Of a DNA stretch of 32,393 nt, positions 13,801-16,324 are shown piece after piece (position 1 is the stretch's first letter; every line of letters starts with the position of its first letter). Made by a program: the position numbers and the translations under genes. The notes under the pieces are model-generated. The model was not told the DNA's origin and did no database searches. It saw only the letters and a list, made by a program, of their open reading frames with translations. Source of the DNA: Blastocatellia bacterium (GTDB lineage: Bacteria > Acidobacteriota > Blastocatellia > Chloracidobacteriales > JADJPF01); NCBI GenBank assembly GCA_023265235.1, contig JAHFUF010000002.1, positions 1 to 32,393 of the forward strand. The letters are read 5' to 3'.

Positions 13801-16324
13801 TTTCTGTTGGCCCATATCCATTAAGAAAACATCTATTTTTAGCCCATTGGGTTACTATATCTAATGTGCAAGCCTCACCAGCACTAATAATTACTTTAAG
13901 CATAGGCAGTTCTTTTTCAGGAAGAACTCTTAAGACAGCAGGAGGAAGAATTACGTTTGTAATTTGATATTTTTCTAAAGTTTCCAGTAAAAAAATAGGC
14001 GGTAAAAGTGATTCTTTTTTAGCTAAACACAGTGTCGCTCCTGCTATTAAAGAAGTAAAAATCTCTGAACAAGCCGCATCAAAACTAAAAGAAGCAAATT
14101 GCAAAACTCTATCGTGCGATTCTATAAAAAAAGCTTTTCTCAACGTTTGGATTAAATTAGACAAATTGTTATGTTGGACTAAAACCCCTTTAGGATTACC
14201 AGTAGAGCCAGAAGTATAAATTACATAAGCTAAATTATGAGCCAGTACTTTATTAGTTAAAGAATTTTTGCTTTCTTGTTCAATATATTCCAAATCTTTA
14301 TCTAACAATACTTTATCTATATTGTTGGTAAATAAACCTGTTAAATTACTTGATGTAACCAATACTGAGAGCTTAGAATCTGCGACTAAAAAAGCTAGAC
14401 GTTCTTTAGGATAGTTAGGATCTAGCGGGATATAAGCACCTCCTGCTTTAAGTATAGCTAATAGAGTTACCACCATTTCTAAAGAGCGTTCTAGACAAAC
14501 CCCAACTAGGGTTTCTCCCTTAACACCCATTTTTTGTAAATAGCGTGCAAGTTGATTAGCTTTATTATTTAGCTCTTGATAGGAAAGTTCTTTATCCTCA
14601 AAAATTACAGCTTTATTTGTAGGTGTTAGTAAGGCTTGCTCCTCAAAAAGCTGATGCAGTAAATTATCTTCAGGATAGATTGATATTCTTTCTTTTTCTA
14701 TAAGTGTTTGATAAACCCCAACTTCACTTAATTCTTGGCTCAGAGTTAAAAGTGCTTTTCTATCTACTTTCTCATTTGCTGTTAGAGGGAATTTTTCTAC
14801 CCTAATAAATCGGTTGGGTATCATATATTCAGGTAATTGTTTAGCCAAAAACTCTTTTATCTCATTTACAATAAAAACTACACTTTCTTTAATTCTCAGA
14901 TATGCAATTAATTGTTTATCCCCTAAACGTGTTTGGCCTACTACAACTACACTTTGTTTAACAACAGGATGTGTGTCCAAAACAGTTTCTATTTCCCCTA
15001 ACTCTATGCGAAAACCCCTTATTTTTACTTGGTTGTCTTTACGTCCAATAAAATCAATATTTCCATCTGGTAGATATTTAGCTAAGTCCCCTGTTTTATA
15101 AAGCCTTGCTCCTGGGTTTTTACTAAAAGGGTTAGGAATAAACCTTTCTGCTGTTAAATCTGCTTTAGCTAAATATCCTCTTGCTAACCCATCTCCTGAT
15201 GTATAGAGTTCTCCCATAACTCCTATTGGTACAATATTAAAGTCTTCATCTACTATATAAATCTCTGTATTAGAAACAGGACATCCAATAGAAACTGTTC
15301 TACCTACTTGGCTTACATCTGTCATAACATAACAACAAGTAAAAGTGGTGTTTTCTGTTGGGCCATACCCATTTATTAGTTTTATTTTTGGTATTTCTAT
15401 AAGTAAATTTTTTACTTCTTTTACTGGTAGTATGTCTCCACCAGCTAATAATTGTTTTACCCCTCTAAAACACTCTAGGTTTTCTTCTACCATTTGCTGA
15501 AATAACGCCGCAGTTAACCACATTATTGTTATTTGATACTCTTTTACTTTTGCTCCTAATTCCTCTAAGGATGGTTTATAAGCTGGAAATATGGCTAGTT
15601 TAGCTCCATTTAGTAAACTACCCCATATCTCTAAAGTTGATGCATCAAATGATATTGGAGCAAATTGTAAAAAGATATCTGTTGAGTTAATTTCTATATA
15701 ATTAGTATTTTTTACTAGCCTCACTACTGATCTATGTGAAACTACTACTCCTTTTGGTTCTCCAGTTGAGCCTGATGTATACATTACGTAGGCTATATTT
15801 TCTGGTCTTACTAAAACACTAAAGTTACTGGTAGACTCTTTTTCTATTTCTTCCCAATCTTCGTCTAAACAAACAACATTAACAGTATCACTACTTATGA
15901 GTTCTATTTTATCTCTTAATCTTTTTTGCGTTAAAATAACTTCTGCGCTGGCGTCTTTAATTAAGTATTCTAGTCTTTTTTCAGGATAAGCAGTTTCTAG
16001 AGGTAAGTATCCTGCTCCTGCTTTTATAATAGCCAATACAGCAATTATCATTTCTAGAGAACGTTCTAAGCAAACCCCTACTAAGGTTTCTTCTTTTATT
16101 CCTCGTTTCCTTAAATAACCTGCTAGCTGATTGGCTTTCTCATTTAGCTCTTTATAGGTCAATTGTTGAGACTCAAATTCAATTGCTATAGCTTCTGGAG
16201 TTACTCTTACCACTTCTTCAAACAACTCTACAATAGTTTTATTCTTTGGATAATTAGTAGCAGTATTATTAACTTGCAATGACAAATACCTTTTATTTTG
16301 ATTAAGTAACTGTTCCTGTCCCAT
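7877..16324 (-). CDS. Non-ribosomal peptide synthetase, 2815 aa: A-A-T-C-A-T-C-(A10 remnant)-T plus acidic C-terminal helix
   Basis: ORF track entry. Domain order:
- A1, aa 25-527: YTSGSTGEPKG, NGYGPTE, YKTGD, GRKDNQVKIRGFRIELGEIE, NEKVDRK. Code DALWLGGTFK, aliphatic/Val-like.
- A2, aa 552-1037, fused to A1 with no carrier between. Code DASIIAGICK, nearest to aromatic codes.
- T: GGHS Ser1088, nt 13061-13063.
- C: HHMLHDGWS from aa 1280.
- A3, aa 1618-2113: code DILQLGLIWK, the Gly code.
- T: Ser2162, nt 9839-9841.
- C: HHIISDEQS, nt 9245-9271.
- 26-aa A10-only remnant, nt 8285-8362.
- T: Ser2728, nt 8141-8143.
An AGGGT motif lies upstream of the ATG. Confidence 0.95.
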   Translation of the reverse strand: MGQEQLLNQNKRYLSLQVNNTATNYPKNKTIVELFEEVVRVTPEAIAIEFESQQLTYKELNEKANQLAGYLRKRGIKEETLVGVCLERSLEMIIAVLAIIKAGAGYLPLETAYPEKRLEYLIKDASAEVILTQKRLRDKIELISSDTVNVVCLDEDWEEIEKESTSNFSVLVRPENIAYVMYTSGSTGEPKGVVVSHRSVVRLVKNTNYIEINSTDIFLQFAPISFDASTLEIWGSLLNGAKLAIFPAYKPSLEELGAKVKEYQITIMWLTAALFQQMVEENLECFRGVKQLLAGGDILPVKEVKNLLIEIPKIKLINGYGPTENTTFTCCYVMTDVSQVGRTVSIGCPVSNTEIYIVDEDFNIVPIGVMGELYTSGDGLARGYLAKADLTAERFIPNPFSKNPGARLYKTGDLAKYLPDGNIDFIGRKDNQVKIRGFRIELGEIETVLDTHPVVKQSVVVVGQTRLGDKQLIAYLRIKESVVFIVNEIKEFLAKQLPEYMIPNRFIRVEKFPLTANEKVDRKALLTLSQELSEVGVYQTLIEKERISIYPEDNLLHQLFEEQALLTPTNKAVIFEDKELSYQELNNKANQLARYLQKMGVKGETLVGVCLERSLEMVVTLLAILKAGGAYIPLDPNYPKERLAFLVADSKLSVLVTSSNLTGLFTNNIDKVLLDKDLEYIEQESKNSLTNKVLAHNLAYVIYTSGSTGNPKGVLVQHNNLSNLIQTLRKAFFIESHDRVLQFASFSFDAACSEIFTSLIAGATLCLAKKESLLPPIFLLETLEKYQITNVILPPAVLRVLPEKELPMLKVIISAGEACTLDIVTQWAKNRCFLNGYGPTETTICATVARCVENTSPTIGYPIDKVEVYILDNNLQKVETVEIGEIYISGKGVSRGYLNKPSLTAEYFIPNPFSLEIGARLYKTGDLARYKPNGEIEFLGRIDTQVKLRGFRIELGEIEATLSKHPTVGNVIVISKEDSSIGKFLVAYWVSKENLAVSSEDLKAFLRQYLPEYMVPSAFLLLDSLPLTPNGKVDRQAVTLMPFYQQIQRNLTLPSGEVEEKLEKIWSEVFKLESIGTNQDFFELGGHSLLITQVLVRIKEGFNIDLPFRSFFNNPTISSLAKIIVPNSKDLSRENFLPLFLQSASRAIPLSFSQARVRFIYQLDPTNIAYNAQATLHFYGSLNIEVLEKCFNEIILRHQILRTAFPIVNQQAIQLIHPFEKVTIPVIDLQFVSKQECDIEVQKIVNKEIRHNFDITKLYLIRWTLLKLSHKEHILIHVEHHMLHDGWSFNVLLNELLVLYKAFNCGKASPLPQLPIQFSDFACYQQEWLKSKQAQKQLDYWKGRLENCPLMLQLNYDHPRPPIQTFRGGALRVEIPLGLAKELRDLSHKYNSTLFMTMLTALSILLYRYSGQQDICIGSGIANRRWDKTECLIGMIINTIVLRINLSGNPSVLELLNQVRDLTLEAYDNQDLPFDKIVERLNPERSLSYSPIYQVLFSFHDAPLPNLQFEDLEIKPQVALNNGSSKFDLNIVAIPHFEQSVGLNCETENPGITLIWEYNSDLFNKSTVEKMVEHYLSLLKAIVVKSKEPISNLQLLSKLEQEQVLVKWNQTTVQYPRNLTVYNLFELQLEKIPNSIAVVCREKTLTYQQLNEKVNELAKRLIKLGAKAETLIGICLERSLNLIIALLAVLKSGAGYVPLDPNYPNERLAFMVEDSKLSILIVENSLIEQFSNNNVEKLLLNAALDGELGKVGEIEPQNNVNLFTKTLGDNLAYVIYTSGSTGKPKGVQITHNSLTNFLYSMKQKTAISNKDILLFVTSLSFDIAALEIYLPLIVGAKLVIASSQTTVDGKALLTELKENNISIMQATPSMWHLLIAAGWKGENNPKVLCGGEAMPLALAQQLCSFSDNVWNLYGPTETTIWSTIEKVSLSENKITIGTPIDNTQVYILDSLLKPVPIGVLGYLHIAGDGLSRGYFNRPDLTAERFVPNPFSQQLGACLYNTGDVARYLPNGKIEFLGRLDSQVKIRGHRIELGEIETVVLEDPAIKEAVIIAEEDIRGNKNLVAYLVAKTDVTSQEIQEKLKAKLPNYMIPTRYVFLLALPLLPNGKIDRNSLSTTDTQDISESFVAPRNYVEEVIARIWTDILKQEKIGIYDSFFALGGHSLLALQIIFQIQKSFNVEASVRDIFESVNVASLAEKVTLSSSFNETTPIIPVARNQDLPLSFSQQRLWILAQLESDSAYNMSIALELLGSLDLIALEKSINKIVSRHEILRTSFNLDLVQEQTVQVISDSLILPLEIIDLTSLSKPEREQKALSILSQKSSEPFKLTKLPLLKSLLIRLSEELHIFFFNMHHIISDEQSVIIFLKELSNYYQEFSLGKEDSNEALPIQYADYSIWQRNKLSKEVLEKQFVYWKETLADLNPLLTFPSDLPRPAFQTYNGARYKLSLDKELSHQIISFSKKQNATLFMTMLASFKLLFYRYTGQTDIVLGSPITGRNHSDLEKLMGFFVNTLVLRTKLSAEESFIALLEKVKQTCLGAYAHQEMPFEKLVEFLQPERNASYTPIFQVMFMLQENSLDNLNLPGITVNRFDIEYKTAKFDMIVFINPLEQGLQVDIEYNTDLFKGETIERIAKNYQELFCSILANPTESINLLPTHITPSAFVFLEEPPKNSNGKIDQQSLTVDSKDGLEGFIKPQSDIERTISKIWVDILDVAKVGLNDNFFYLGGHSLIATKIISRLRKENGIELSLRDIFENPTVAELASIIEEKSKNKVGEIKKTISDRIPNVDSNKEILNKLNELSDKDVDKWLKSFSGSE
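14723..16281 (-). repeat. Starter A-domain cassette, copy 2 (direct repeat of 6164..7712)
   Basis: Same evidence as copy 1. This copy has three extra codons (ELISSDTVNVVCLDEDW versus EAISNNTICLDQDW) and one extra base at 16244-16252 relative to copy 1. Confidence 0.9.

Follow-up and report, generated by a model that had tools for sequence, protein, structure and literature searches.

Tandem adenylation (A) domains in nonribosomal peptide synthetases (NRPSs) were described as "very rare" in 2016, when AulA had only PyrG as a precedent (PMC5238615). A 2026 study defines a C-Ax-KAL-KR-T class that has about 125 members, with HctF-M1, HapC and Dol15D-M2 from cyanobacteria among them, and in which a condensation (C) domain is followed by an A domain (Ax), a keto-acid ligase (KAL), a ketoreductase (KR) and a thiolation or carrier (T) domain (PMC13643306). 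The Ax-KAL-KR-T layout has been attributed to the recruitment of a second activating domain beside a resident one (PMC5238615, PMC10510592, PMC13643306). A-A didomains are already known, so far only as a decaying canonical A domain joined to a keto-acid ligase and then a KR. Here we describe N2815, a 2815-amino-acid (aa) NRPS encoded within 32,393 nucleotides (nt) of DNA from a Blastocatellia bacterium (assembly GCA_023265235.1, contig JAHFUF010000002.1, positions 1 to 32,393; this whole stretch is called the window below). What appears to be new here is that two canonical, intact A domains stand in tandem and that the carrier-less one seems to be kept by selection, in a protein that also holds a carrier-only module.

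According to the list of open reading frames (ORFs), the window contains four large synthetase genes in two divergent operons, with a GC content of 30-37% throughout. N2815 lies on the minus strand and is followed by a paralogue, here called Left, that runs off the left end of the window. The plus strand carries a 1562-aa NRPS and a 2591-aa hybrid (P2591) of polyketide synthase (PKS) and NRPS. Pfam finds three AMP-binding, three AMP-binding_C, three PP-binding and two Condensation domains in N2815, whose parts around the tandem A domains are as follows.

7877 to 16324, minus strand: N2815, 2815-aa NRPS, with the order A1-A2-T1-C1-A3-T2-C2-(A scar)-T3 (ORF list, translation, Pfam and motif map)
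14768 to 16222, minus strand: A1, adenylation domain proper, aa 35-519 (Pfam AMP-binding at 35-385 and AMP-binding_C at 444-519)
14678 to 14722, minus strand: A1-A2 linker VGVYQTLIEKERISI, 15 residues, aa 535-549 (translation; no Pfam domain at E<=1)
13229 to 14647, minus strand: A2, adenylation domain, aa ~560-1032 with AMP-binding_C at 957-1032 (Pfam); pocket code DASIIAGICK, all motifs intact
12956 to 13147, minus strand: T1, the first carrier, aa 1060-1123, with GGHSL at 1085, adjoining A2 (Pfam PP-binding)

The initial annotation of this DNA had proposed that A1 is fused to A2 with neither a carrier nor a condensation domain between them. Our analysis confirmed this fusion. A1 ends at E534 (14723-14725, in agreement with the earlier coordinates) and A2 begins with the YP of its YPEDN sequence at Y550, so that A2 starts 16 residues after E534, and not 18 as first reported. 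The 15 residues between the two are too few for a carrier of about 70 aa, and about 31 aa separate the A10 lysine of A1 from the YP. Domain annotation, the check that had been suggested for this arrangement, bore it out: a 97-aa piece across the junction, scanned against Pfam at E<=1, returned only the tail of AMP-binding_C and no PP-binding domain, and the first PP-binding domain of N2815 is found only at aa 1060-1123, after A2.

Among 175 A domains from the window and 81 fetched loci, the junction of N2815 was the only place where motif A8 of one domain is followed by motif A3 of the next with no T or C domain between. When the junction served as a tblastn query against 72,556 plasmids, 7,996 places matched, and in the 30 best-ranked plasmid records listed, no alignment started before query residue 22. 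Plasmid matches with at least 80% coverage were considered as possible A-A junctions; the four that were read, three of them among the longest alignments, proved to be ordinary C-A junctions lacking an upstream A9/A10. In these four, a C-A linker aligns to the tail of A1, and they are not A-A fusions. In a protein search with the junction query, the 120 matches listed were all single-A proteins of at most 643 aa; N2815 itself was absent from this list, so that a limit on hit length is suspected.

A1 scored far above the family cut-offs, with 302 bits for PF00501 (cut-off 29.9), 40.9 bits for PF13193 (cut-off 24.5) and 452 bits for TIGR01733 (cut-off 317). Core motifs A1 to A10 are all present in this domain (LTYKEL, YTSGSTGEPKG, FDAS, NGYGPTE, GELYTSG, YKTGD, GRKDNQVKIRGFRIE, LPEYMIP and NEKVD), with slight variants in core motif A2 (IKAGAGYLPLE) and core motif A10 (NEK for NGK). 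The first A domain of Left, which has its own carrier, shows both of these variants. Residue D235, the aspartate for the alpha-amino group, and K517 are present, and the A3 P-loop, the A7 aspartate, the A8 hinge and the A10 lysine are intact. By alignment to GrsA-PheA, with a GrsA reference sequence whose residues at the ten code positions came out as expected, the pocket code of A1 is DALWLGGTFK. Homologue P0060 has exactly this code, and seven other cyanobacterial homologues (DAFWLGGTFK) agree with it at 9/10 positions. We take DALWLGGTFK and DAFWLGGTFK to be valine-type codes. The alignment of A1 with the valine-activating A domain of LgrA likewise runs from end to end. The corresponding code in Left is a derived DVFWFGGTFK, and A2 has DASIIAGICK with aspartate at position 235. 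The motif map and code alignment thus uphold the initial view that A1 keeps its core motifs and A10 lysine. Judged from its sequence, A1 is an intact amino-acid A domain of valine or aliphatic type, probably active, and not a relic. The earlier prediction that it looks active is strengthened by the selection tests described below.

We compared this arrangement with the described didomains. N2815 resembles PyrG (pyridomycin), AulA (auriculamide) and Dol15D-M2 in having two adenylate-forming domains in tandem with no T or C domain between them. In the Ax-KAL-KR-T proteins, the upstream A domain is degenerate (motif A3, or Asp413 or the lysine, is lost) and inactive or dispensable, whereas A1 of N2815 is intact. 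The downstream domain of those proteins is a keto-acid ligase with a hydrophobic or non-acidic residue at 235, where A2 of N2815 has aspartate. In place of the KR that follows their second A domain, N2815, in which Pfam shows no KR, passes from AMP-binding_C (957-1032) directly to PP-binding (1060-1123). In N2815, moreover, the upstream domain is the one held in common with a paralogue. N2815 has a layout like that of Ax-KAL-KR-T proteins but lies outside the class, as it departs from each of the defining features.

The paralogue Left shares the A1 region with N2815, and the following features define the shared segment.

2 to 7756, minus strand: Left, with the order A-T-C-A-T-C-A-(T) and its start at 7756; runs off the window edge and is 2786 aa in full on an ENA contig
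5939 to 6121, minus strand: carrier cognate to the first A domain of Left (Pfam PP-binding at 551-611 of the 2-7771 frame; alignment)
14683 to 16285, minus strand: A1 cassette, codons 14 to about 538, in common with Left 6121-7717 (blastn, 84% over 1607 nt)

The 5' border of the cassette falls at codon 14, and neither the preceding 13 codons nor the DNA upstream of them is related to Left. The 3' border lies within the A-T linker, about 4 codons beyond SQELSE and ahead of the first helix of the carrier. As noted earlier, the same SQELSE leads into a normal carrier in the paralogue, where NEKVDRKALLxLSQELSE is followed by a carrier with GGHSL. The breakpoint is not codon-exact in the strict sense, as had also been claimed: similarity runs on for about 4 codons past SQELSE (VGVY against ARDY, 8/12 nt) before it fades, 14683 is the last position of the blastn match, and the precision is about +/-5 codons.

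Both borders of the cassette lie within the N2815 reading frame. Without A1, N2815 (A2-T1-C1-A3-T2-C2-T3) is collinear with the modules of Left (A-T-C-A-T-C-A-T) at 64-69% nt identity. At the protein level, C1 and its counterpart in Left are 51% identical, C2 and its counterpart 52%, T2 and its counterpart 66%, and the C-terminal subdomain (Asub) of A3 and that of the second A domain of Left 67%. By these comparisons A1 is an additional, younger cassette common to N2815 and Left, and copying may have run in either direction. Residues 1-13 and 539-549 together make 24 aa before the YP, the leader length seen in Left, which suggests in-frame insertion of the cassette into the leader of an ancestral A2-T1-... 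protein. Two origins had been proposed for the didomain, an in-frame T-C deletion and an N-terminal graft of the duplicated cassette. Because the borders lie inside the ORF and the remaining modules are collinear with Left, the graft is favoured, and in this respect the proposal gains support. Deletion of a T and a C domain from a four-module ancestor would also give two A domains side by side, but it is less parsimonious in view of the module collinearity and would require more events. In the graft, a complete A cassette, with core (Acore) and Asub, would have been placed in frame 11 residues upstream of the YP motif of A2, yielding the order A1-A2-T1.

The mosaic of the two A1 copies between motifs A3 and A5 matches the natural Acore exchange units described by Baunach et al. 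2021 (PMC8097286). In those exchanges the C-A linker and Asub are retained together with the interface between Asub and T (PMC8097286), whereas the graft in N2815 comprises a whole A domain including Asub, with the Asub-T link severed.

To assess how the two A1 copies have evolved, we compared them by segment and with a relative, the metagenome-assembled genome (MAG) GCA_964536575.1, whose matching sequence lies on two non-overlapping contigs, L001 (CAZHXL010000395.1) and L082 (CAZHXL010000127.1). Over the full comparison of A1 with the first A domain of Left, the ratio of nonsynonymous to synonymous substitution rates (dN/dS) was 0.19, and each of the segments that start at or after codon 16 gave a value in the range 0.07-0.20; for the leader of 15 codons dS was too high to compute, and no dN/dS estimate resulted. 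The segments were as follows.

Codons 16-180: 90% nt identity, dS 0.35, dN/dS 0.13
Codons 181-335, 15320 to 15784, minus strand: motifs A3 to A5 with the pocket residues, 70-76% nt identity, dS 0.9-2.1, dN/dS 0.09-0.20
Codons 336-400: 97-100% nt identity, dS 0.09, dN/dS 0.07
Codons 401-534: 84% nt identity, dS 0.60, dN/dS 0.16
Codons 334-393, 15146 to 15325, minus strand: near-identical tract, aligned with about 6575-6754, sliding identity up to 1.00, attributed to gene conversion

Over its ~180 nt, the near-identical tract shows 0-3 differences between A1 and Left, and in a three-way comparison A1 differs from the orthologue of Left in the relative by 0-2 nt per 90. Within it, A1 is as close to that orthologue (on L001, 95% identical to Left) as Left is, which points to gene conversion around the time of the strain split. 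Divergence of the copies is confined mainly to the A3-A5 pocket segment, with homogenised flanks. This pattern fits two copies that are held functionally distinct. Conversion appears to stop at the specificity-determining A3-A5 segment, where the copies are 70-76% identical. A foreign source of the pocket segment was ruled out, as the two copies are closest to each other (71%, against 55-63%). In a relative-rate test with 8 outgroups, A1 had 13-20 private aa changes and the first A domain of Left 26-31, and A1 is by this measure the more conservative copy. A neutral simulation at 8% substitution, half of the observed divergence, and 33% GC kept the frame open in 0/5000 runs. Left and the 1562-aa NRPS gave dN/dS values of 0.125 and 0.14 against the 95%-identical relative, and the cluster is therefore not decaying. 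Based on these sequence comparisons, we conclude that A1 is under purifying selection and that its pocket is kept distinct from that of Left.

We next consider which carrier A1 might serve. The features that bear on this question are listed below.

In that order between T1 and C2, approximate coordinates, minus strand: C1, A3 and T2 of N2815 (Pfam)
8375 to 9676, minus strand: C2, aa 2217-2650, condensation domain of the A-less module 3 (Pfam Condensation, 354 bits; HHIISDE motif)
8285 to 8374, minus strand: decayed A9/A10 remnant LPTHITPSAFVFLEEPPKNSNGKIDQQSL, 30 residues between C2 and T3 (read from the sequence)
8039 to 8224, minus strand: T3, carrier without an A domain of its own, aa 2701-2762, GGHSL with the serine intact (Pfam PP-binding, 57 bits; carrier alignment)
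28670 to 28849, plus strand, approximate coordinates: A-less carrier ending P2591, LGVHSL (Pfam and sequence)

Module 3 of N2815 and the end of P2591 are both C-T units without an A domain in Pfam, and the two A-less carriers placed earlier at 8030-8242 and 28637-28855 are real (T3 of N2815 and the terminal carrier of P2591, respectively). No AMP-binding match was found by Pfam in aa 2200-2815 of N2815. The remnant between C2 and T3 has changed at conserved positions (Y to H, M to I, LPLT to PPKN, and DR to DQ). Its sequence identifies it as the scar of an in-frame deletion of the whole resident A domain of module 3; given this decay, the deletion happened some time ago, and the gene is nonetheless still open. 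N2815 thereby has three A domains and three carriers that are not paired conventionally. Beyond T3, its C-terminus carries a docking-like tail (ELSDKDVDKWL), as read from the sequence.

A-less modules that depend on an A domain from elsewhere are known from other assembly lines. In yersiniabactin HMWP2, an A-less module is loaded by a non-cognate A domain. Thalassospiramide and WS9326A synthetases likewise contain C-T modules that need an A domain from elsewhere and are loaded by non-cognate A domains (PMC10510592). In known cases, the supplying A domain has a carrier of its own, or a stand-alone A-T pair works with shuttling enzymes resembling thioesterases (TEs); in N2815, the candidate supplier is an orphan A domain fused at the N-terminus of the same polypeptide, and no shuttling enzyme was seen in the window. 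No TE-like ORF or other release domain was found among the ORFs of the window, beyond which the cluster extends.

Lacking a carrier of its own, A1 would have to hand its aminoacyl-adenylate to a non-adjacent carrier. T3 would need aminoacylation if N2815 is functional, which makes the orphan A1 on the same polypeptide the simplest candidate. We therefore propose, tentatively and at somewhat less than even confidence, that A1 serves a carrier to which it is not adjacent and that this carrier is most probably T3, so that the aminoacyl-adenylate would be delivered to the C-terminus of the polypeptide on which A1 resides; the A-less carrier at the end of P2591 would be a second possible target. 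With T3 as its target, A1 would be the displaced A domain of the A-less module, and three A domains would serve three carriers. A stricter form of this proposal, possible but more doubtful, is that A1 is the working A domain of module 3, which would then be one module split in cis between an N-terminal A and a C-terminal C-T more than 2,100 residues apart.

Several points weigh against loading of a distal carrier by A1. Carrier comparison, with identities of 34-45% all round, gave no signal that would single out T1, T3 or the P2591 carrier as the partner. The match of three A domains to three carriers may be coincidence, and for the A-less carrier of P2591 no A domain is left over. The Asub-T interface is normally kept in natural recombination (PMC8097286), the Asub of A1 is tied to another A core and may be hindered in reaching the thiolation conformation, and the upstream A domain is inactive or dispensable in every characterised A-A didomain (PMC5238615, PMC10510592, PMC13643306). 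A1 could also be kept intact by gene conversion, with the functional paralogue as donor, in the absence of selection on A1 itself. Finally, no orthologue of N2815 was found in genome contigs, in metagenome contigs (searched with the A2 start) or in its 90% identity cluster, in which it is a singleton. The genome-contig scan returned only the 95%-identical orthologue of Left, and the best matches of the A2 start in the metagenome contigs were generic A domains, 53% identical. The relative itself keeps Left, the 1562-aa NRPS and the hybrid, with synteny to the window broken at 8065 and 16565, and appears to lack most of N2815, of which the last ~63 codons survive while the other genes are under selection. 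N2815 may accordingly be dispensable. Beside the two breaks, and apparently in place of window positions 8065-16565, the relative has an IscB-like sequence (L001 2-466, a C-terminal ORF), an RRXRR ORF, an AraC regulator and a pair of aldo-keto reductases. An apparent split of the hybrid orthologue in the relative (2237 aa and 335 aa) was traced to a run of ten N at about 16160-16200 of L082, and there is no real stop.

We weighed three other explanations for A1. In the first, which we consider unlikely, A1 and A2 both load T1, so that chains start with either a valine-type residue or the substrate of A2. Both domains are intact and their codes differ (DALWLGGTFK and DASIIAGICK), T1 is the nearest carrier, and the ~31-aa stretch from the A10 lysine to the YP is close to the length of a normal A-T linker. 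There is also a parallel in the anabaenopeptin synthetases AptA1 and AptA2 of Anabaena sp. 90, which are tandem paralogous initiation NRPSs with differing first A domains that give product variants (PMC8402340). N2815 and Left are likewise tandem collinear paralogues that begin with an A domain, and their first codes differ (DALWLGGTFK and DASIIAGICK in N2815, DVFWFGGTFK in Left). Cyanobacteria diversify their peptides by an "alternative starter module" strategy, of which dual loading of T1 would on this analogy be a fused form. Each Anabaena starter A domain has its own carrier in its own protein, whereas N2815 has an extra starter-type A domain fused in front of another. Moreover, T1 is tethered to the Asub of A2 and not to that of A1, and the Asub-T interface is conserved in natural recombination (PMC8097286). 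No A-A didomain is documented to load one carrier from both domains, and the first A domain is inactive or dispensable in PyrG and AulA (PMC10510592, PMC5238615). Dual loading would also leave T3 without a loader.

In the second explanation, A1 is an intermediate of A-domain exchange that plays no part in making the product, or has a scaffolding role only. The first A domain is non-catalytic in all characterised A-A didomains (PMC5238615, PMC10510592, PMC13643306), the conversion tract is recent (0-3 differences in 180 nt), the close relative seems to be without N2815 although the rest of the cluster is kept, and at 90% identity N2815 clusters with no other protein. On this account A1 would be repaired again and again by conversion, with the functional paralogue as donor, and decay would come later, as in the Ax domains of PyrG, AulA and Dol15D. 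We consider this second explanation unlikely as well. The pocket segment, which is not homogenised by conversion, still has dN/dS of 0.09-0.20 at dS of 0.9-2.1. A1 has fewer private aa changes than its paralogue, and unlike in Ax domains its pocket code is canonical and its A3, A7, A8 and A10 residues are intact. An open frame would also be unexpected after 8% neutral change (0/5000 simulations). The third explanation, that an assembler joined a paralogue-like A domain to the true 5' end of N2815, is very improbable. The sequence is a metagenome-assembled contig, and the A1 copies have identical stretches of up to about 180 nt at which a path switch could occur. At both borders, however, similarity fades gradually with scattered mismatches and does not break off in an exact k-mer common to the two copies. 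The frame is open over all 2815 codons at 33% GC, and the identical protein is on record twice, on a 35,131-bp contig at NCBI and on a 20,522-bp contig at ENA. Even after a path switch in the identical tract, one of the genes would contain the Asub-linker-A2 junction.

The finding comes from one metagenomic locus, and the function proposed for A1 is deduced from sequence. If A1 does load a distal carrier, then a complete A domain (Acore and Asub) can be relocated away from its carrier and remain of use to the assembly line. N2815 would then show in nature that an orphan A domain fused in cis can load a carrier at a distance, and that a whole-A graft can work without the native Asub-T interface. 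The rule derived from natural recombination is that this interface has to be preserved; distal loading by A1 would go against it, and would offer a simple design for feeding A-less modules in engineered synthetases. If instead A1 loads no distal carrier, the locus would capture, as a dated snapshot, an early stage in the gain of an A domain that precedes the decay of one copy.

The neighbouring genes yielded further observations. In Left, the second and third A domains (49-1244 against 3211-4406, minus strand) are duplicates with 88% nt identity and a core that is 83% identical at the aa level, and they have glutamine-type codes (DAWQFGLIDK and DACQFGLID-). By sequence comparison, they constitute a second, independent A-domain duplication in the locus. 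The 1562-aa NRPS (16612-21300, plus strand) has the order C(27-457)-C(475-905)-A-T, a C-C didomain with ~17 residues between its two halves. Its second C domain resembles the N-terminal acyl- or aryl-accepting C domains of MxcG and EntF, and its A domain has an acidic pocket code (DIWEVTADDK). With two C domains ahead of a single A-T and two starter proteins upstream, the product might be branched.

The hybrid P2591 (21212-28987, plus strand) reads KS-AT-KR-T(GGDS)-E-like-C-T, with ketosynthase (KS) and acyltransferase (AT) domains at its start. The epimerization (E)-like domain, with PIQKWF and GWFT, reaches 72 bits for TIGR01720 against a cut-off of 74 and directly follows the carrier of the PKS module. 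The true start of P2591 is probably the ATG at 21293: the orthologue in the relative starts with MNNEND, and the listed TTG probably lies too far upstream.

The relative MAG is labelled "uncultured Clostridia bacterium", and the best A-domain relatives come from Nostoc, Microcystis and Trichormus. A 225-aa protein (29011-29688, plus strand) contains a CcbP calcium-binding domain (PF11535). CcbP is known from heterocyst-forming cyanobacteria. The taxonomic label of the relative MAG may be wrong. Past the synthetase genes, an 838-aa protein (29861-32377, plus strand) shows weak matches to beta-propeller (lactonase/YNCE-like) and cytochrome c domains.

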